Shown here one piece after another: positions 47,178-57,554 of a stretch of 64,000 nt of DNA. How positions within the stretch are numbered: the first letter of the stretch is position 1; every line of letters begins with the position of its first letter. Source of the stretch: a virus; the IMG/VR virus record IMGVR_UViG_3300049719_000158, positions 1-64,000 of that record; one strand, 5' to 3'. Under the pieces are notes generated by a model. The model was given only the letters and a program-made list of their open reading frames with translations. It had not been told where the DNA came from and did not search any database. Made by a program: the position numbers and the translations under genes.

Positions 47178-48221
47178 TTATTTCACCATATGTACAGCCG
47201 CTATTTTTTTGTGCATTACTTCAGGCCATTCAATAAATTCAAGCACCTCTTTTACTTGACGATCTAAATCTTCGTCATCAACATAAAGTATATGAACGTT
47301 ACCATGTGACCAGTTTTTAAAACAATGATAAAGTTCTGAAATATATGTTAACGCTTTTTCATTTATTGTTGGGTCTAAATCATCACATATTCCAACAAAT
47401 GATTTTCTGGTGCATATCAAAATTTTTGCACCAATTTTGGTGTAATCATAATCTAACTTACGTAACATCCTCAAATCTGTTTCACGCTTAAAATATTGTG
47501 CATAAACCCATTCACACATATATGCACGATCAACTAATACACTTGTACACAATTGATATAATACATCCACAAAACGTGGTTCTGCATATCGTATTTCATT
47601 AATAAATCTATCTTGAGATAACAAGAAATTTTCATGTTCGTTTGAAACTTTAAAATAATTTATTCCTGTTATACGTTCAATTTCTCTAAGAATTGTTGTT
47701 TTTCCACATCTATCGGGTCCACCGCATAAAAGAACAACTTGTTGAGGATTTCCTCGACGATTTGTTCGTTCTTGAGCATTTTTGTGTTTTATACGATCTT
47801 CTTCTGACCACTTACGACCCATTCCTGCTTTACTTAAATTTGAATGAGTTTCAGTGGAAACAATTCTGTGCCACGACGACATTTTTAATTTTGTTTCAAA
47901 CGTCATTTCGCACCCGCACATTCCTTCACCTCCACGTGTCATATTGTATCCTTTGTCAGGATAATCATATATGAACGTTTGGTGCTCAGAAATTAGACGA
48001 ATTTCTGCACTTTTTGCTTCTTCGCAAGAAGCAAATTCACCCAATATTTCATGTATCCATGCATCAATACCGTATTTTTGTATTGCTCTATGAAAAGCGT
48101 ATTTTGATCCTCGCTTTGCTGATTTAATATGTCCTCGCCAGCATTCACTAATAGATGAATTAGTCCATCCAATGTACGCTTTTCCGTTAGTTGAATTTGT
48201 ATGTTTATATACAAGAGGCAT
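47178..48221 (-). CDS. GIY-YIG/NUMOD3 endonuclease fused in frame to a dNMP kinase
   Basis: VYKHTN..NGKAYIGWT, GYNMTRGGEG, then GGPDRCGKTT and LVDRAY..EWVY. Confidence 0.8.
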   Translation of the reverse strand: MPLVYKHTNSTNGKAYIGWTNSSISECWRGHIKSAKRGSKYAFHRAIQKYGIDAWIHEILGEFASCEEAKSAEIRLISEHQTFIYDYPDKGYNMTRGGEGMCGCEMTFETKLKMSSWHRIVSTETHSNLSKAGMGRKWSEEDRIKHKNAQERTNRRGNPQQVVLLCGGPDRCGKTTILREIERITGINYFKVSNEHENFLLSQDRFINEIRYAEPRFVDVLYQLCTSVLVDRAYMCEWVYAQYFKRETDLRMLRKLDYDYTKIGAKILICTRKSFVGICDDLDPTINEKALTYISELYHCFKNWSHGNVHILYVDDEDLDRQVKEVLEFIEWPEVMHKKIAAVHMVK

Positions 48222-48529
48222 GTGACAATATTCTATTCTAACCAACGACAATTGTACACACTACAATAACTTAAACTCTGGATGTTCTTCGAGAAGAACA
48301 CGCATTGCAACGTCGTAGTCGTTCGGTTCAATGAACGAAAATCTCAATGCCCACCCAAGTGCTTCATGAATGATATCAAATTCCTTTTAAGACATTTAAT
48401 TGTCTTCCTTTTCGTCAGGAACGTTCAAAAACACGTACATCGACAATAATGCCAAGACTATTGCGACGAACAACCACGCGTCTTGCGTCATGTGTGGCCA
48501 TTGAAAGTGAACGAGCCACGTTGGGGGCT

Positions 48530-49815: not shown

Positions 49816-50606
49816 CTTCCATGGATTTTTAATCGCTAATGCTTGAGCTGCGCGGCGCTTTACACGAACGTGTTTTTCTTTGAGACAATCGATCAAATGA
49901 AAATATTTTCCATGATTTTCATTCTCTTCAAAGTCTATTTCGTCCTGTATGTCCCACTGCCGGCGCACTAATGCTGCAACTCGAAAGTCCCAGCCTTTGC
50001 GAAGCTGATTGCGAATTGAACGTTCTACAATTTCAACGTCGGCGCAATCATATGCATCTGTGGCTTTGTAAGGTGTTAGTTTCATTTTATTCTTCCATTT
50101 TTGATCAGGCTTCGAATACTTCTTCAAGTTCATTCGTCGTATCCATCTAAAATCCAAAAACACGTCGTGCACAGTGCACCGCCAAACTTTGGCGACGAAG
50201 GTTCTTTGAGAGGTAACTTGCAGCACTGACACTCATGTTCAAGTTCTTCAGGTTCTTCTTTTTCTTCTTCAATCATTGAATGATAATACCACACTCACCA
50301 ATGTTTTACACAAAACCACCCTTCACATGGAGCGGCGCGTAAGTCTCCAGGGCCTGCAATGTTGCCAAGAAAACGCCCACACTCAGTACAATACGGGTGC
50401 ACAATTTCAAACTCGCAACCTCTTCCAAACCATATAACAATGGCTTCCAATCGCGTTTAAACATCTTAATTTTAATATTAATCAACGCATTCGGTGTTGT
50501 ACAAATTATTTTACGAAAAAGACAATTCATGTCATCCCACGATGGGATGACTATTCTTGTCAAAGTCTCGAACATAAAAAGCTCAACAACCACGTCAACA
50601 ACTTTT

Positions 50607-52508
50607 TCATACTGTCACTTCCTTGCACTTGTGTATTCTCGTTGAAACTCCGAAGTCATTCCTCTCACACTCAGCTACGTATAACGCAAATGGCACCAAG
50701 TCTTGGTTTGCACCCCAAACGTTGATCTTCACGTTTTTGGTGCCAATTCCGAGCGTGTCGGCACACACGTAGCTCTTGCCTGCCTTTGTCTTCTTCAGGA
50801 GAGACCTTACACAAACAAAGTAGTACAAGTCCTTCGCGCCTTCTTGACACATGTTGATTGGCTTTATTCCCTTGGCGTCAAGGCGCTCAAACACTGCCTT
50901 GTCTATCAAGGACACCGTATCGATGGCGCCTGTGATTTCAAGCATGAAAGAAGCCAACTCCTTCTTCGACCACTCGTCGCACTGGCCCACAGTTCGAGCC
51001 AGCTCGTACATTGTGCGCATGCCGATGTGTGGGTCGTTCTTCTTGCAGTGGCGTATCTTGCCGTCCATGAGAACTTCGTGCATTCCCTTGTAGGACTTGA
51101 AAAGCTTGTCCTCGCCCACGCAGTCAAGGCTCTCGAAGGCTCGAAGCTTCACGAGGGCCTCAAACCCACGCTTGTTGAACTTGCTGAAGCGCCACGTGCC
51201 GTCAGCGTTGTAGAGCATGTGCTCGAGGCTGTCAAAGGGACGAAGCGACATGAGCTCGGCTACTGCTGCGGCGCCGACGCCTTTGCAGGAGAGGAACGAG
51301 GGAACGAAAGTCTTCTTCTCCTTGATACAGACCCACTTTGATGAGGAGTAGTTGACGTCGAGGGACATGACCTTGTAACCGAGCTCTTTTACTTGGGAGA
51401 CGGCCAACGCCTTGTCTTCGTCCGAGGAGACTGACTCGAGGTACGTGGCGAGCCATTCGTCGGGATATTTAGTGAAAAGCCAGCTGCAATAAAAGCTATC
51501 GATTGCATATGCGGTGGCATGCGAACAATTTGAAACAGATATGTCATTTGCAAAAAATGTGTGATCTGGATGATCTACTGTAAGATCATATGTCATTTCA
51601 GGAGCACATTTTTTAATGCTAACGATTTCGTCAAGTAATTTGGTCGTTGTAACAACATGTTCACATTTACACGACATTATTTCTTTTAGTGATTTTAACC
51701 CAAACGGTGTCATTATTTTGTGATCAATGGTACAACGAAGCGTTTTGCCAGATTCTGTTCTTAGCTCGTATACTTCGTTCACACCTTGATCAAGTTGATT
51801 GAGCACCTTTACATAACCATTTTCAGACAAAACGTGCTCACCCGGGATGACGTCTTTAATTGATACTGTCCCACGTTCCTTTGTTTTCACAAACGAAGTG
51901 GCGGACAGACAATTAAACCCATATCCCGCAAAAAATAGAATATTTGCATATGCTTTTCGAGCTATTTCTTCAGGAACAGAATTCTTTATCGCACCGTTCA
52001 TGAAATCGTCTTCGAGCGCAAGAGCTTTTTTCTTTGCCTCTTCGCCACCTGACGTCGAACGCTTCATGATTGCTCGGCGAACTTCGTCACACTTCTCCAT
52101 CGGAAATCCACCGACGTAATGTGCCAAATTCATCACATCTTCCTGAAAAATTAAGAGACCTCGAGTTTCTTTTAGAACTTCGTTGATTAACGGGTGACCC
52201 CAGTCGTAGGGTTCATGTTCATGTTTGACCCAGAGGTCATGCACCCTCGCTGAAAGGGGTCCCGGGCGATAAATTGACGTTAATGCAGCAATATCCATTA
52301 TTGATTTTGGTTTTGCTTTTTTAAATAAATTTTGAGCTCCTTTCGACGTGAGCTGAAATATGATTGGGAAGTGACCGTCCTCATAAACATGCTTGTAAAC
52401 TTCTTGATCGTTCAAATCAATGGTATCAAGTCCCATGTTTTGTTCGTACCATGAACGAACATCAGAAAACGAAGGTTCAACTTTTGTGATTGACGTTATT
52501 TTTGACAT
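50607..52508 (-). CDS. dnaE: DNA polymerase III alpha, C-terminal part, containing a mini-intein
   Basis: IFQL, SIYRPGP, LIFQE, FAGYGFN, SHATAY, KGVG HhH, C-terminal OB-like region. Confidence 0.93.
   Translation of the reverse strand: MSKITSITKVEPSFSDVRSWYEQNMGLDTIDLNDQEVYKHVYEDGHFPIIFQLTSKGAQNLFKKAKPKSIMDIAALTSIYRPGPLSARVHDLWVKHEHEPYDWGHPLINEVLKETRGLLIFQEDVMNLAHYVGGFPMEKCDEVRRAIMKRSTSGGEEAKKKALALEDDFMNGAIKNSVPEEIARKAYANILFFAGYGFNCLSATSFVKTKERGTVSIKDVIPGEHVLSENGYVKVLNQLDQGVNEVYELRTESGKTLRCTIDHKIMTPFGLKSLKEIMSCKCEHVVTTTKLLDEIVSIKKCAPEMTYDLTVDHPDHTFFANDISVSNCSHATAYAIDSFYCSWLFTKYPDEWLATYLESVSSDEDKALAVSQVKELGYKVMSLDVNYSSSKWVCIKEKKTFVPSFLSCKGVGAAAVAELMSLRPFDSLEHMLYNADGTWRFSKFNKRGFEALVKLRAFESLDCVGEDKLFKSYKGMHEVLMDGKIRHCKKNDPHIGMRTMYELARTVGQCDEWSKKELASFMLEITGAIDTVSLIDKAVFERLDAKGIKPINMCQEGAKDLYYFVCVRSLLKKTKAGKSYVCADTLGIGTKNVKINVWGANQDLVPFALYVAECERNDFGVSTRIHKCKEVTV
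51528..51911 (-). mobile_element. Mini-intein (128 aa) at GFN|CSH of DnaE
   Basis: CLSATS start, CTIDH block B, TYDLTV..HTFFANDISVSN|C end. Confidence 0.9.
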
Positions 52509-53794
52509 ATTATATTCAAGAACTGTTCAAAAGAAGTTTCGTTATCAATAATACGAATAAAATTTAAATCTTGTAGTTTAAACCATTCGTTTTGTTGCAA
52601 GTCACGTTGCATTGTGTCAAATATAACCTTATCTCTTGGCTTTTTAAACTCTTTAATTTCATCAATTGATCTGTTCAACCCATGCCAATACGTTCCATCA
52701 AATTGGACGTATGTATCAATTGATTTTATATAAAAATCTATTGCCCAACCGTTAACATTTTGTTGACGTACTACGTCGTCAATACTGAATAGTGAAACTA
52801 AAAATTCGTAAAATCTATCTTCAGATTTAGACTTACCATATGAACCATTTTTCTTCATTGTTTGATGAATTTTTTCTTGAATTTCAGGACGCTTCAACTC
52901 TTCACTAATTTTTGCACGAACTTCAGGTAATTTTGAAAGGTTATCAACGCCAAATTTCTCAATCCAAGAATTCACACAGTCTTTTCTATCACCTGCCCAA
53001 TTGTGTTCATAACCGTGTCTAACAAGATTTATTTGACGTATCTTTTCTTGAATTACTGGTGAAGCGTACACATTTTCAACGCCATAACGTTCAATGTTAG
53101 TTTCCTTGATGTGTTCTCGCACTATCGTTGAGCCAATTGCATACTCACAACCATAACGCTCGAGATTTGTCTTGGTTCTACTAATTTTTGCTTTTTCTTT
53201 TATACTTTCGACCTTATTTGGACTTGAAACGCCATAATTTTTCATGTACGTTTCAACTGCTTTTGCTTTCACTACGGGTGACGACGAAGCGTGTTCGTAC
53301 CCATACTTCTCCATGCAAAATTCTTTTTTCTGTAACAATGCACGTTGGTGATGAACGCGTCCACAGTAAACTACACCCGTAGACGTATGAGAAAACTTTC
53401 CAAAATCTTTATCAATCCAATCGCAACCAGTGCCGGGATTGACATATGTTTCTTCAACGAGCTTTATTAGATCACCATACTTTTCAAGTAACAGCTGTTT
53501 TATTTTTAAAATGTCTCTTTCACGTTTTTCTTTTGCTTTTCGCTCTTTGTGATAAAAACCCTCAAAAAAATGATCAAGTCGTTGTGTAAATCTTCCAAAT
53601 TCAATGTCAATGAAATCACATTTTGATTTTAGACCTGAAAATGTGTTGTCAACTATCGTAACCGTATTTCCAAACTTTGCAAAAATTGCTTCTTTTACAA
53701 GTTTTAACTTTTCTTCTTTTGACTTACGTTTCATCACCAAACCTAAAAAACACACCTTCCAAAGAACCACTTTCACCAAGTGAAAACGAACCAC
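52496..53794 (-). CDS. Vsr-like homing endonuclease with ETNxERYG repeats (intact), lying between the dnaE halves
   Basis: Repeated KxTNxERYGxE; SKSE...IDFY...QFDGTYWH...RD..QN; likely start ATG at 53734. Confidence 0.85.
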   Translation of the reverse strand: MVRFHLVKVVLWKVCFLGLVMKRKSKEEKLKLVKEAIFAKFGNTVTIVDNTFSGLKSKCDFIDIEFGRFTQRLDHFFEGFYHKERKAKEKRERDILKIKQLLLEKYGDLIKLVEETYVNPGTGCDWIDKDFGKFSHTSTGVVYCGRVHHQRALLQKKEFCMEKYGYEHASSSPVVKAKAVETYMKNYGVSSPNKVESIKEKAKISRTKTNLERYGCEYAIGSTIVREHIKETNIERYGVENVYASPVIQEKIRQINLVRHGYEHNWAGDRKDCVNSWIEKFGVDNLSKLPEVRAKISEELKRPEIQEKIHQTMKKNGSYGKSKSEDRFYEFLVSLFSIDDVVRQQNVNGWAIDFYIKSIDTYVQFDGTYWHGLNRSIDEIKEFKKPRDKVIFDTMQRDLQQNEWFKLQDLNFIRIIDNETSFEQFLNIICQK

Positions 53795-53896
53795 TTGATG
53801 TCATCTTGAATAAGTCTGCTGAAACTTTATCATTATTTGTAGTTGTGTCAATAGGACATATTGTGAAGTTTAAATTTTTATCATCTTTTGTCATAA

Positions 53897-56650
53897 TCAC
53901 ATTTTTTCTATTGGTATCACTACGTCGTCACTAATTTTTAATTCCCGTACAAAGACGTATTGACCATTTGTTAACTTAACTTTGTCATTCTTATTTAATT
54001 TATAATTTATTCCATCAATACACACATTTACAAGTTCGTTTTCTAAAATTAAACTAATGCTATTTTCTATTAGACGCAAAGTGGATAGCCCGAGGATATC
54101 CATTTTTATCCACTGTGCAATTTTTTCTAACTCCTTAACATTCATACCTTCGGTCCATGGACTTTGCGGTTCTCCTCCTGACATTATGAGTGGCATCTGC
54201 TTCGCAATGTCGTCCGCAATCAACACGCCACCTGCGTGTCTTGACAAGCTCTTGTTTTGCTTGAACAAGATCTTCATCGAAGCTCCAATTTCTGGATGTG
54301 CCTCGATGAAATCCCTGAACGACTTGCTATATTCCATTGCAGCATCATAGGTTAACACAAACAAATTCTTGTCATCACCTTCTTTTAAGGTTGCCTTTCT
54401 TACTTCGTGTTCAACGGATGCAGTGGCCCTGTTCGCCTCTTCAAAGGGAATGCCATAGAACTTGCTCAAGTCTTTGATCAGCGATTTAACTTTGAGCAAG
54501 TTATAATTACTGATAGGAATTACATTCGTGTTTCCAAACTCTTTGCGCAATACATCTAAAACCTTGTCGCGGTCGCCGATATCGGTGTCAATATCCGCCA
54601 TGCCTTGGCGATATTTACTCAGGAATCTGGAAAACGGTAACTTCCATCTAATTGGATCAAGTTCGGTGATGTACAAAACGTAATTAACCAAACTTCCCCC
54701 GCCTGATCCTCTCGCAGGTCCTACAAGGGTGACTTCACGAGCGAGTTCTATCACTTTTTGGTATGTGATGAAGTACTCGGCCATGTTCAGAAACTCAATT
54801 ACTTCAAGTTCCTCCTTGATCCTCTCTACGTACTCCCGCTTTCCCTTTAGCCCGCGCTTCTTTAGCCCTTCGATGCATAAATACGACAGGTGTTCTATCG
54901 GCGTCCTATCCTTTGGCACAAGCTTCTTCGGAAGCTTTATCGTCCTGTCGGGCTGCACGTCACCTATCTCTTCAAATGCTATATCGTGGCCTCGTTCTAC
55001 AGCATCGCAGACGAGATCATCAATGCTATCGTCGTATAAATCAGAGCGCTGCTTTGCTTTTTTATACTCCTCCCAGATTTGTAAATGATTCTTAGGATAA
55101 AGCTCGCACTTTAATTCCTCTCTCGACTTCGGCAAGAGATCAGGAGAGTACATGTCAAAGCTGACGTACGCGAGCTTCTTGTAGATCTCCCGTTCACGCC
55201 AGACGTCAGGGTTGTAGTAGTGCGCATCGCAGGTGACCAGGAGTTTATTAGTCAACCCATTTCTCTTGGCAAACTCGATCAAAGACAAGTTGATGATGTC
55301 CTGCGCGGCGAGCTTGTTGAACTGTAGCTCAAGGTACGTGTCTCCCTTACCGAACATGTCAACGAGCATCTCGTATGCATTGCCAACGGCATTGACGCAG
55401 TTTTCTTTGGTCTGCTTGTTACGAAGCAAGTTGACATCGAGCTCGTCGAACTTGTACTGTTCAAGGAGCTTGAAGATGTTGTAGCCCGGGAGACCTGAGA
55501 TACAATTGTGTACCAAGATGTCATCAGCAAAGAAGTTGTGGGTGTCAACGACTTCAATGTCATAGACGTCTGAATTGCCACAAGGATTTACCGTTTCAAT
55601 TTCAATGAACTCAACTGCGTCGTTGTCTTTGTATGCCTTTACACCTTGATGATGAAACCACTCAACGTATTGAGCACAATGTCGAGCGTGATTATGAGGA
55701 ACGCGACAAGTGCAGTAATTCTTGTATGTTTCAAGTCGATAGAGAATTTTGTCATCATGCCAAAGTTTTCCTGCCTCGACCCATCCACGTTTGGTGAACA
55801 ACCTGTGATCTGCAGTGAGTTTTATTTTTGCTCCGTTCATCAAGCACACTTCGACGATGGGCGTGTTGTAACGCGTCTTGTCTCCCCATGTCACCCGTCT
55901 GTGAACAATTTCATGCTTGTCTTCGTCCCAAGACATGACGTCTATTCGTTCGTTGTTCTTGTAAATTTTGACGACTTCTTCGATCGTGATCTTACCACGA
56001 TCAGTCCAAATCATCGTGTCAGGGTGCAGGCACGCCGTGCTCGCCAACACGTTGCCACGCGTCAAAGTCTCCTTGACCATCTTCACGTCGATGCGGGGAA
56101 ACCTATACAAACCCTCGAGAAAGCTTCTCGATGTCAGGTGAAACAACTCTTGCAGGCCCTGCGAGTTCTTTGGCAACAGAACAAGGTGGTGACGTCGGTT
56201 GACCGGGTTGAAGTGCTTTGTAGACTTGCTTTCGTCCTCGTTCTCAATGACAATTGCTGAAGACGTGTCAATGTCGACGATGTCATCGGAGCTGGAACGA
56301 GTGATGTTGAGCTGAGTCTCGACGGGAGTGCGGGATTTCTTTTTTAATCCTGCCTTTTCATCGTCGTGTTGAAGCTTGTCGAGCTTCCATTGTTCTAAGT
56401 CGGGGTGGAAATAAGCCTCGATGCCAGGGAGGTAGCGGAATTCTTTGCCTGACTTGTGCCAGCCTTCGACAAGAAGCTGGGAGCGGGCGTAACCCGACAT
56501 GTTCCCGTGATCCGTAAGAGCATGTCCACTTATTCCGTTCTCAATGCAAAAGGAAAAAATATCATCAGGATACCCAAGCGCGTCATTGCACGAAAAATTA
56601 CTATGGTTGTGAAGCGAAATATACTTTTGAGGAGTTTTTTCTGACATCAT
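53897..56650 (-). CDS. dnaE: DNA polymerase III alpha, N-terminal part (PHP + palm), containing a mini-intein
   Basis: LHNHS, LTDHG, GIEAY, TCDAHY, GPARGSGGGSLV, DIDTD, RHAGG, KMDILGL. Confidence 0.95.
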   Translation of the reverse strand: MMSEKTPQKYISLHNHSNFSCNDALGYPDDIFSFCIENGISGHALTDHGNMSGYARSQLLVEGWHKSGKEFRYLPGIEAYFHPDLEQWKLDKLQHDDEKAGLKKKSRTPVETQLNITRSSSDDIVDIDTSSAIVIENEDESKSTKHFNPVNRRHHLVLLPKNSQGLQELFHLTSRSFLEGLYRFPRIDVKMVKETLTRGNVLASTACLHPDTMIWTDRGKITIEEVVKIYKNNERIDVMSWDEDKHEIVHRRVTWGDKTRYNTPIVEVCLMNGAKIKLTADHRLFTKRGWVEAGKLWHDDKILYRLETYKNYCTCRVPHNHARHCAQYVEWFHHQGVKAYKDNDAVEFIEIETVNPCGNSDVYDIEVVDTHNFFADDILVHNCISGLPGYNIFKLLEQYKFDELDVNLLRNKQTKENCVNAVGNAYEMLVDMFGKGDTYLELQFNKLAAQDIINLSLIEFAKRNGLTNKLLVTCDAHYYNPDVWREREIYKKLAYVSFDMYSPDLLPKSREELKCELYPKNHLQIWEEYKKAKQRSDLYDDSIDDLVCDAVERGHDIAFEEIGDVQPDRTIKLPKKLVPKDRTPIEHLSYLCIEGLKKRGLKGKREYVERIKEELEVIEFLNMAEYFITYQKVIELAREVTLVGPARGSGGGSLVNYVLYITELDPIRWKLPFSRFLSKYRQGMADIDTDIGDRDKVLDVLRKEFGNTNVIPISNYNLLKVKSLIKDLSKFYGIPFEEANRATASVEHEVRKATLKEGDDKNLFVLTYDAAMEYSKSFRDFIEAHPEIGASMKILFKQNKSLSRHAGGVLIADDIAKQMPLIMSGGEPQSPWTEGMNVKELEKIAQWIKMDILGLSTLRLIENSISLILENELVNVCIDGINYKLNKNDKVKLTNGQYVFVRELKISDDVVIPIEKM
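55505..56032 (-). mobile_element. Mini-intein (176 aa) at TA|CISG of the PHP domain
   Basis: CLHPDT start, LTADH block B, VYDIEV..THNFFA..ILVHN|C end. Confidence 0.92.
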
Positions 56651-57006
56651 TTACCTTCCCAAGTCGGGATCAACTTCCTATATTTTACCTTAAATTCACC
56701 ATATTGTTTACCCTCAATTAAGATTATTTTAATCTCCGGGAATAATTTTGGCATCAGTTCAATTTGATTTCTTGACCTGTCATTCATTCTACCCTTAAGC
56801 TCATACCACACATTGTCTTCACTAACATAAAAATCGGGAGTGTACGTTAGATTGTTTGCCAAACGAAAAGTTCTTGGCTCGTATTCCCACGTTTTATTCT
56901 CGTAATTCAAAATTCTTGCAAAATTTGCTTCCCAATTTGAGCGACAGGTCTTCCCAAATTTCTTGGACTGCAACACGTAGCCAAAATCTTTAACTAAACT
57001 CTTCAC
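56647..57006 (-). CDS. PD-(D/E)xK endonuclease
   Basis: RSNWEAN...YEP...YTPDFY...ELKG. Confidence 0.8.
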   Translation of the reverse strand: MKSLVKDFGYVLQSKKFGKTCRSNWEANFARILNYENKTWEYEPRTFRLANNLTYTPDFYVSEDNVWYELKGRMNDRSRNQIELMPKLFPEIKIILIEGKQYGEFKVKYRKLIPTWEGK

Positions 57007-57416
57007 AAGTCAGCTGAGCCAAGGCCGTCCCCATCGCAAACTGACCATTCCCGGGCGGTCTGTTTCACTTCATCGGCCTGCTCTGCAATGTCATCGTCCA
57101 ATTGCTTTAGTGCAGCACGCCTAAATGTTGGTAAGAACTCAAGAATATTGAACGCTGTTCGTCTAAAGCGGGCGAGGTCTTCCAAGGGGCAAGGTGCGAC
57201 GGATGTACTACATATGCGTTTAAACGTGTCAATGATTACGTCATTGTCCACACTCTCTTTTGCCAGCTCACACACCTCAAAAAACGTTGCAATTTCGTCT
57301 TCGTTCAAACACGCAGTGATGTCTGTTCGACGCATGATTTCGTTCTTGATATTGTCAATTTGTGACTGTGTTAGCATGATGAAATCCAAACTTTCGTAAA
57401 TCCCGTCAATTGACAC
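57003..57416 (-). CDS. Hypothetical protein
   Basis: 137 aa ORF, operonic. Confidence 0.6.
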   Translation of the reverse strand: MSIDGIYESLDFIMLTQSQIDNIKNEIMRRTDITACLNEDEIATFFEVCELAKESVDNDVIIDTFKRICSTSVAPCPLEDLARFRRTAFNILEFLPTFRRAALKQLDDDIAEQADEVKQTAREWSVCDGDGLGSADL

Positions 57417-57554
57417 GAAGCAACGTACTTAATCACAAATCCTTCGAGCCATGAAACACACACGATGTCATGCGACCCAACACGGAGACAAAAGTTCTTT
57501 TCTCCCTCAACGAACTTGCGTCCAGTCAACATTCGTGCGGTGTCTAATGGCGTT

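Follow-up and report, generated by a model that had tools for sequence, protein, structure and literature searches.

Fractured genes that combine a split intein with a free-standing homing endonuclease, including three DnaE loci, have been described by Dassa, London, Stoddard, Schueler-Furman and Pietrokovski (Dassa et al., 2009; PMC2677866). The split inteins of that set contain the six Hint motifs and five catalytic residues, consist of an N-terminal fragment (IntN) of 88-105 amino acids (aa) and a C-terminal fragment (IntC) of 33-54 aa, and carry opposite charges on the two long strands through which the fragments dock (PMC2677866). An essential gene that was split by a homing endonuclease, and in which neither RNA nor protein splicing takes place, has been characterized by Crona, Moffatt, Friedrich, Hofer, Sjoberg and Edgell (Crona et al., 2011; PMC3045599), namely Aeh1 NrdA (NrdA-a/NrdA-b). 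Deletion of the tails of this protein decreases the activity about 2000-fold; the tailless halves still associate, and the defect is in higher-order assembly. In the text of that article, the tails are proposed, as a speculation without sequence evidence, to be remnants of a degenerate intein. Here we analyze a 64,000-nucleotide stretch of phage DNA (positions 1 to 64,000 of the IMG/VR record IMGVR_UViG_3300049719_000158; hereinafter, the window), in which the dnaE gene for the alpha subunit of DNA polymerase III (Pol III), at positions 50,607 to 56,650, is divided in two by a homing endonuclease gene, with candidate remnants of a split intein at both broken ends. The locus as a whole is likely to be best explained by a non-splicing cassette with a half-Hint clasp that holds the two DnaE chains; the polymerase probably consists of two chains that stay unjoined and are kept together by an intein leftover.

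The locus consists of three open reading frames (ORFs) in tandem on the minus strand that encode the N-terminal half of DnaE (N-half), the homing endonuclease and the C-terminal half of DnaE (C-half). The PHP, palm (NTPase), fingers and HhH domains follow each other in the correct order over both halves, which are colinear with the unsplit 1230-aa protein of the IMG/VR locus L002. In the N-half, Pfam detects PHP, Intein_splicing (residues 218-382) and a complete DNA_pol3_alpha domain (residues 587-854, profile positions 2-260 of 260), and in the C-half, DNA_pol3_finger (residues 17-161, beginning at profile position 12) and HHH_6. The polymerase part of the N-half ends with SLIL, so that its C-terminus reads ...KMDILGLSTLRLIENSISLIL, followed by the tail ENELVNVCIDGINYKLNKNDKVKLTNGQYVFVRELKISDDVVIPIEKM and the stop codon; the C-half starts with the head MSKITSITKVE and continues with the polymerase sequence PSFSDVRSWYEQN.... 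Unsplit relatives cross the junction uninterrupted, with ..ELVLRKGGNQNPTFSDIRAWYDEH.. in L002 and ..ELILESQGNKNYTFSDVRKWFEEN.. in P0122, the nearest relative of the window (about 80-81% identity); the DnaE proteins of L002 and of another IMG/VR locus, L003, are unsplit, intein-free and 1206-1230 aa long. Given the Pfam domain boundaries and the continuity of the unsplit relatives through the junction, both the tail and the opening ~11 residues of the C-half are truly extra: ~48 tail and 11 head residues stand in for a ~8-residue loop of unsplit DnaE. A first-pass annotation, made from the sequence of the window alone, had read the locus as a dnaE in two halves, with a 48-aa non-polymerase tail on the N-half and a C-half that opens with MSKITSITKV and passes into polymerase sequence without an intervening HN followed by C, S or T. 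The ORFs, the Pfam boundaries and the comparison with relatives confirm both parts of this description.

A search seeded with the last 178 residues of the N-half yielded 106 proteins, of which 44 end at the junction, 58 are unsplit (including the protein P0210, discussed below), one is a truncated unsplit fragment and three lack the anchor motif. The survey of relatives for the same tails, which the first-pass annotation had proposed, gave a uniform result: the tail is present in all 44 N-halves that stop at this junction, and the head pattern M-x-K-[IV]-x-S-[IV]-x-x-V opens ~50 of the 120 C-half matches listed. Among 88 IMG/VR loci, 79 are unsplit, seven are split at the junction and two provide no data; all seven split loci are tailed, with five distinct tail sequences among them, and each tail has a partner head wherever the locus DNA is available. 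The recurrence of the two-piece layout with intact frames in dozens of diverged relatives, along with the complete, strongly scoring Pfam domains in both halves and the intact catalytic residues of the two genuine inteins that the gene also contains, argues against the view that the split dnaE is a decaying pseudogene while another polymerase is used for replication; we consider such decay extremely improbable.

An alignment of 48 tails was compared, using hhalign, with an alignment of 15 genuine IntN from the same pool of phage DnaE pieces. The tails matched IntN with a probability of 96% (E 1.6e-9, score 50) and covered columns 44-105, a stretch that begins immediately ahead of block B and reaches as far as the split point; the scores of 40 column shuffles did not exceed 13.3, and the reversed alignment scored 10.4. 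In a second test, a profile of six tails was searched against 1.84 billion protein cluster representatives and retrieved 264 proteins at E<=1e-3, mainly inteins. When the best 146 of these proteins were re-scanned, [TS]xxH was found at the block-B positions in 161 of the 221 matched stretches, and Pfam Intein_splicing was present in all 28 of the top non-DnaE matches examined. The hosts of these inteins are portal proteins, family-A polymerases, ribonucleotide reductases and helicases. Certain genuine IntN ends closely resemble the tails, as in P0232, which ends with ..VEVELYDGTVVKCTPEHLFMLSDGTYKEAQYLTEDDDIMTVY (60 bits). We also observed that, when the N-halves were aligned with MAFFT onto full-length P0210, the tails were placed on the protein's own C-terminal IntN and not on its insert; this unplanned placement is a sign that tails and real IntN ends are, at the sequence level, much alike. 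Taken together, the profile comparisons support the homology of the tail with the second half of a split-intein N-fragment, as the first-pass annotation had proposed, with a weak but consistent fold match (see below) pointing in the same direction. The companion proposal, that the head resembles the first strand of IntC, holds insofar as the head begins that way and is in register from the initiator Met (MAKVtSIkkV versus MKLvSsk.vG); the match taken alone is weak (11 columns, probability 9%, P 0.0035).

The residues required for splicing are missing from both remnants. Neither [TS]xxH at block B nor a His at the position of the block-B His is found in any of the 48 tails, and the window tail has N..D in place of T..H; the same procedure recovers T..H in 9 of the 15 genuine IntN. 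None of the 48 tails has block A either: each begins at most ~8 residues before the strand aligned with IntN column ~44 and, therefore, has no room for the block-A lobe. The statement of the first-pass annotation that the tail lacks both the TxxH His and block A is thus borne out across the family. The heads, 10-16 aa long, pass directly into the polymerase motif P-x-F-x-D-[IV]-[KR]-x-W-[YF], and none has the HN followed by C, S or T that ends blocks F and G. Given the missing catalytic residues and the small size, with tail and head amounting to ~59 aa in total, protein splicing is excluded. An arrangement in which the endonuclease ORF would supply the missing lobes of a three-piece intein was considered and rejected, there being no conserved nucleophile directly after the N-extein: the residue right after the polymerase helix is not conserved.

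Could the pieces be joined after all, either at the RNA level, by a group I intron that harbors the endonuclease gene, or by an unusual split intein devoid of the canonical residues? Endonuclease-bearing group I introns and split inteins are both known from phage replication genes; for instance, the endonuclease I-Bth0305I has its gene inside a group I intron of a phage recA gene (PMC3239194). Furthermore, the window tail includes a Cys (..NVCIDG..). However, this Cys is not conserved among the tails, TxxH is absent from all of them, no head contains an Asn followed by a nucleophile, and the two pieces are much smaller than the IntN and IntC of Dassa et al. (PMC2677866). At the RNA level, no Rfam match was found at E<=1, group I introns included, in positions 50000..57500, and the RNA fold upstream of the endonuclease ATG is not significant (z -1.1). 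In the relatives L010 and L013, the endonuclease ORF overlaps the tail-coding and head-coding sequences on either side, which leaves no space for a ribozyme core, and in L005, the gap between the halves spans 2.9 kb and includes an ORF on the opposite strand. Finally, tail and head are conserved as protein. RNA splicing of the dnaE pieces is accordingly unlikely, and joining by either route appears highly improbable.

The fold of the remnants was explored with AlphaFold2 (AF2) on a 116-aa fragment of P0210, in which tail and head lie in one chain. For this model, tails alone were aligned (31 sequences), so that the head had zero alignment depth. The mean predicted local distance difference test (pLDDT) value is 64. 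Over the tail, at pLDDT 60-87, the model shows a helix, four strands and then a second, short helix; the head region is below 50. In a fold comparison with 48,161 PDB representatives, the 11 best of 41 rows at Z>=2 are inteins (Z 4.8-3.2), and Hint folds comprise 26 of the 41 rows. A Foldseek search of the PDB gave NpuDnaE intein chains as the top seven rows, with E values of 0.33 or more, and nothing at E<=0.001. We take this structural match as an agreement of the model with the sequence result and not as a separate proof. An AF2 model of the full 892-aa P0210 was uninformative on the insert because the alignment placed no homologue there. Equally uninformative was a complex prediction for residues 864-916 of the N-half with residues 1-32 of the C-half, both with alignments, which scored 0.18, below the mark of 0.32, in a run without controls.

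Given that the remnants do not splice, they could be a neutral scar, that is, intein leftovers without function, with the halves joining through their own interface. Halves of split enzymes often associate unaided, and the Aeh1 NrdA halves without tails still formed a heterodimer (PMC3045599). The tails evolve far faster than the polymerase core (mean pairwise identity of 27% versus 69% among the 44 split proteins), and their ends vary in length. Nevertheless, the frame is open in all 44 N-halves, over 42-75 aa of AT-rich DNA, and the mean pairwise identity of the tails compares with 7% for shuffled tails. The conserved tail positions are a Gly, a Glu, an Asp-Gly, a Leu, a second Asp-Gly, a Leu, an Asp-Asp and a Pro, and of these, Gly, Asp-Gly, Leu and Asp-Asp are kept although the cores of the split relatives have diverged to 47-62% identity with the window. 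Charge is conserved as well: 45 of the 48 tails have a net negative end segment (mean -3.2), and 44 of the 49 heads are net positive over residues 1-11 (mean +1.9). In the same data, genuine IntN likewise end acidic and genuine IntC start basic. Together with the loss of activity upon tail deletion in Aeh1 (PMC3045599), conservation and the charge pattern make a neutral scar hard to reconcile with the data, and we regard it as rather unlikely.

A natural fused form bears on the arrangement of the two remnants. In P0210, the sole protein in which such a fusion was found, tail and head are joined in a single chain without an endonuclease gene (...NVVVDDVI-DN-KKIIDIKTDV-TPVFADV...); therefore, the tail end and the head can be neighbors across a two-residue turn. 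Judging from its sequence, P0210 has the look that would be expected of a hairpin of the last tail strand and the head strand once the endonuclease gene is removed, and it may represent either the state before the invasion or the state after the loss of the endonuclease gene. The insert of P0210 occupies residues ~700-760, and a genuine IntN lies ~50 residues downstream, at a site where ..GVFQ is followed by C. In a search with P0210 residues 690-800 for further fused forms, P0210 alone had the insert and the other six matches were without it.

The retention of the module in frame in P0210, without an endonuclease gene, would also fit another job for it. The small beta module could be an added polymerase domain that contacts a replisome protein or DNA, or could be of use to the endonuclease by coupling its translation, shielding the homing site or acting in regulation; the overlap of the head start codon with the endonuclease ORF, which is constant, fits coupled translation. 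However, the module is absent from 79 of the 88 IMG/VR loci and 58 of the 106 proteins; since most relatives lack it, it is not a required replisome contact. In addition, the conservation is in the protein pattern and charge and not in the DNA alone. On balance, a role of this kind has a low probability.

Several lines of evidence suggest that tail and head belong to a mobile cassette. Compared with a GC content of 45.8-46.0% in the flanking polymerase sequence, the values for the tail (27.8%), the head (27.3%), the endonuclease gene (33.7%) and the spacer (32.1%) are all low, and the GC break coincides exactly with the alignment break. In a tree built by a quick method from 235 columns upstream of the junction for 146 DnaE rows (44 split, 101 unsplit, one fused), the split state requires 30-31 changes, with at least 10 of them forced by strongly supported branches; the sister of the window, with a support of 99, is the unsplit P0122, and the two tail subtypes do not track the polymerase clades. 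The simplest reading is that the tail, the endonuclease gene and the head are gained and lost as one unit through homing and recombination. The half-Hint described in the first-pass annotation as domesticated is there, but given its cassette-like low GC and patchy distribution on the DnaE tree, the tail/head pair looks more like a part of the mobile cassette than a host domestication.

The slot between the halves is occupied by different endonucleases: of the DUF7487 type in the window, the zinc-ribbon type in L001 and L013, the GIY-YIG type in L010 and a 599-aa type in L006, whereas the 2.9-kb slot of L005 holds other ORFs. In every endonuclease-bearing case, the 3' end of the gene overlaps the head start codon, by 13 nt in the window (where these final nucleotides are shared with the start of the C-half), 8 nt in L001, 13 nt in L010 and 23 nt in L013. 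The window ORF matches PHROG families of homing endonucleases (phrog_3339, E 2e-22) as well as Pfam DUF7487, and its frame is also open from an alternative upstream GTG at 53794. For the C-terminal domain of this protein, DUF559 (score 0.95) is present in the ESM-Atlas clusters that lie nearest, and one cluster has Vsr in 18% of its members; no Vsr was detected by Pfam or by a PDB sequence search, in which the matches were at chance level. Thus, of the 'Vsr-like' endonuclease placed between the halves by the first-pass annotation, the homing endonuclease stands and the Vsr label is a lead. A 58-aa ORF in another frame (53724..53900, minus strand) takes up the entire spacer that separates the endonuclease ATG from the stop codon of the N-half; judging from a loose resemblance of ..TICPID.. 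to MICPFCN.., with which the endonucleases of L001 and L013 begin, the ORF could be what is left, after a frameshift, of an N-terminal zinc-ribbon domain. In a 309-kb viral contig (L006:1-12780), dnaE is broken into at least seven pieces within 12.8 kb, with several genuine split inteins and endonuclease genes between the pieces and a dead tail/head pair at the junction considered here.

As to the origin of the cassette, no complete intein was found at this dnaE site in any of 44 relatives. A full split intein may have decayed in place; alternatively, the endonuclease gene may have hopped out of a split intein along with the adjacent half-fragments only. An endonuclease hop of this type has been proposed for mobE by Crona et al. 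(PMC3045599).

The evidence can be accommodated in the following scenario. A mobile cassette composed of a tail-coding segment, a homing endonuclease gene and a head-coding segment would have broken dnaE where the fingers domain begins, within a surface loop that separates two helices. The tail would derive from the C-terminal half of IntN (from the block-B region to the split point) and the head from the first strand of IntC; the block-A lobe, the Thr and His of block B, and blocks F and G, including the terminal Asn, would all be gone. Given the loss of these catalytic parts, no peptide bond would be made or broken, and the polymerase halves would remain two separate chains. The acidic tail end and the basic head would pair as adjacent antiparallel strands, in the manner of docking split-intein fragments, tying together the two fingers helices, so that the polymerase would not be harmed by the insertion. 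In the 'capture and collapse' scheme of Shah and coworkers (2013), the docking of split inteins reportedly begins with IntC and the second, disordered half of IntN, which corresponds to the part retained here. The endonuclease would spread the whole cassette, including the clasp, into uninterrupted dnaE alleles by homing, which would explain the patchy distribution.

The binding of tail to head and the need of the polymerase for the clasp are inferred from conservation, charge complementarity and the natural fused form, and several observations weigh against this reading. The confidence of the P0210-fragment model is low for the second half of the tail and for the head (pLDDT below 50-60), and fold-match Z scores of up to 4.8 are in a range that can come from common arrangements. 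Scans of single tails against Pfam and PHROG detect no Hint family, so that the likeness exists at the profile level alone, and the head match, as mentioned above, is weak. The last tail strand is not universal, given that certain type-2 tails end 2-4 residues past the DD motif. The count of changes between the split and unsplit states comes from a short tree, and recombination within dnaE could inflate it. A large native interface could let the polymerase halves bind well by themselves. The Aeh1 NrdA tails are essential for activity but are not needed for the association of the halves (PMC3045599), and by analogy, 'clasp' is possibly the wrong word for the role of such tails; the DnaE tails, too, may position the halves instead of merely tethering them. 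Overall, the reading put forward in the first-pass annotation, a half-Hint domain domesticated as a clasp, stands in part: the Hint homology of the tail without catalysis is supported, and the domesticated clasp is the component that remains conditional.

The coordinates of the features of the locus are given in Table 1.

Table 1. Features of the split dnaE locus (positions in the window).
Feature	Coordinates	Strand	Basis
DnaE N-half ORF, 917 aa: PHP, intein 1, Pol III alpha palm/NTPase, first fingers helix, tail	53897..56650	-	ORF list and Pfam
Intein 1, contiguous, genuine, 176 aa (N-half residues 207-382), in the PHP domain; CLHPDT...TADH...VHN, then C	55505..56032	-	
Tail, 48 aa, ENELVNVCIDG...DDVVIPIEKM; half-Hint remnant homologous to the C-terminal half of IntN	53900..54043	-	hhalign, relatives, GC
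Spacer, 162 nt, from the N-half stop codon to the endonuclease ATG	53735..53896	-	
Homing endonuclease gene, free-standing, 412 aa from the ATG at 53734	52496..53734	-	PHROG phrog_3339
Head of the C-half, 11 aa, MSKITSITKVE; resembles the first IntC strand, blocks F and G absent	52476..52508	-	
DnaE C-half ORF, 633 aa: head, fingers domain, intein 2, HhH, C-terminal domains	50607..52508	-	ORF list and Pfam
Intein 2, genuine mini-intein, 128 aa (C-half residues 200-327); GFN, then CLSATSF...TIDH...SVSN, then C	51528..51911	-	

Both genuine inteins keep C1, TxxH and the terminal HN or SN followed by C, such that live and dead Hint elements occur together in one dnaE; the GC content of intein 2 is 37.2%, below that of its flanks. 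The window is of phage origin; its other genes include those for GroEL, ThyX, ribonucleotide reductase, an exonuclease and two nucleotide-sugar epimerases. No near-identical DNA was found for the window among phage records, and in a protein-level search of deposited phage records, all relatives were below 60% identity, without a close one. Two more ORFs on the minus strand are related to endonucleases. A 119-aa ORF (56647..57006), which overlaps the dnaE start by 4 nt, has PHROG matches annotated as 'Holliday junction resolvase' and 'endonuclease' and resembles, by eye, the C-terminal end of the larger ORF that precedes dnaE in L001 (3..644); the ORF probably encodes a homing endonuclease that is either short or truncated. 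In a 357-aa ORF (47178..48251), residues 11-168 match GIY-YIG homing endonucleases (phrog_314, E 1.6e-30), and the C-terminal part (..GGPDRCGKTTILREI..) resembles, by eye, a stand-alone P-loop protein of ~180 aa encoded downstream of dnaE in L002 (9033..9575) and L003 (9589..10149); this ORF may be an endonuclease joined in frame to a host gene.

Tail-profile matches that lack TxxH and block A also terminate other proteins, namely, a piece of a family-A DNA polymerase (P0377), a piece of NrdA (P0279) and two proteins without an assigned type (P0236 and P0287). P0279 is cut right after ..CEILLPTKPFNSLDDEGD / ..LPTKPFNSLDDEGD, at a position where the unsplit NrdA of L091 (68-1747) continues with ..DDDKGRIALCTLGS; the cut lies between the active-site residues that Aeh1 divides over NrdA-a and NrdA-b (PMC3045599). 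A search of viral contigs for the P0377 locus found no relative, and neither for the PolA tail nor for the NrdA tail was a partner recovered. It is conceivable, if somewhat short of probable, that the tail, the endonuclease gene and the head constitute a distinct class of mobile elements, a non-splicing intein that has lost both catalytic lobes and retains a docking half-Hint as the antidote to its own gene fracture, which would have arisen or spread in several replication genes. If this is the case, a pair of ~45 and 11 aa would be a natural minimal module for non-covalent heterodimerization. The dozens of natural tail/head variants make testable the question of which is the smallest Hint part still able to pair; should the pair bind, it would provide a small natural non-covalent protein-pairing tag, and certain phage Pol III alpha enzymes would be obligate heterodimers.

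Compared with the fractured genes of Dassa et al. (PMC2677866), the layout is closely similar: a phage-type replication gene, dnaE among others, is broken into pieces that share a strand and are separated by a free-standing endonuclease gene (there GIY-YIG or 'Vsr-like'), intein-derived sequence is found at both broken ends, and the docking strands are oppositely charged. Moreover, genuine split inteins of that kind are present at other dnaE sites in the relatives L005, L006 and L010. Unlike the inteins of that study, the remnants described here are reduced to ~45 and 11 aa, with none of the catalytic residues, so that no splicing is possible; a state without the catalytic residues is not known from PMC2677866.

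The cyanobacterial split DnaE inteins (PMC2677866) likewise yield Pol III alpha from two genes with Hint-derived docking fragments at the ends, but these fragments are full and catalytically active, splice in trans and occupy another site, and the genes are far apart, with no endonuclease gene. In the window, the neighborhood of the cyanobacterial split site (..GYGFN followed by C..) holds the contiguous intein 2. Two-chain replication enzymes produced through a mobile endonuclease gene are also exemplified by gp43 of Aeromonas phage 25 and by T4 gp39/gp60 (PMC2677866, PMC3045599); for gp39/gp60, tail-like extensions are noted but, unlike for the DnaE tails, no intein homology is known from these articles.

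The sole analogue that has been tested is Aeh1 NrdA (PMC3045599), which shares with the present locus AT-rich, oppositely charged extensions at both broken ends that are absent from unsplit homologues. The charges are the other way round in Aeh1, where the C-terminal tail is basic and the N-terminal tail acidic. In that system, tail function has been measured, whereas the role of the DnaE tails is proposed here from sequences; conversely, the article reports no database match for the Aeh1 tails, whereas the intein origin of the DnaE tails can be demonstrated by profile comparison in a large family. The first-pass annotation knew of no description of such a state; in a literature search with thin coverage of subscription journals, we likewise found no prior description beyond the speculation of Crona et al. 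(PMC3045599), by which the idea was foreshadowed.

Thus, fractured genes with active split inteins, tail-dependent unspliced assembly and split cyanobacterial DnaE inteins are already known. New are the half-Hint remnants described here, which are catalytically dead yet of demonstrable intein descent, form a large natural family and travel with an endonuclease. This family provides sequence-level support for an origin of tails that was previously only guessed and suggests that the docking function of split inteins can outlive their chemistry and move with an endonuclease in a mobile element. It bridges two ways of living with endonuclease-fractured genes, the trans-splicing of split inteins as in the loci of Dassa et al. 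and the unspliced, tail-dependent assembly of Aeh1 NrdA.

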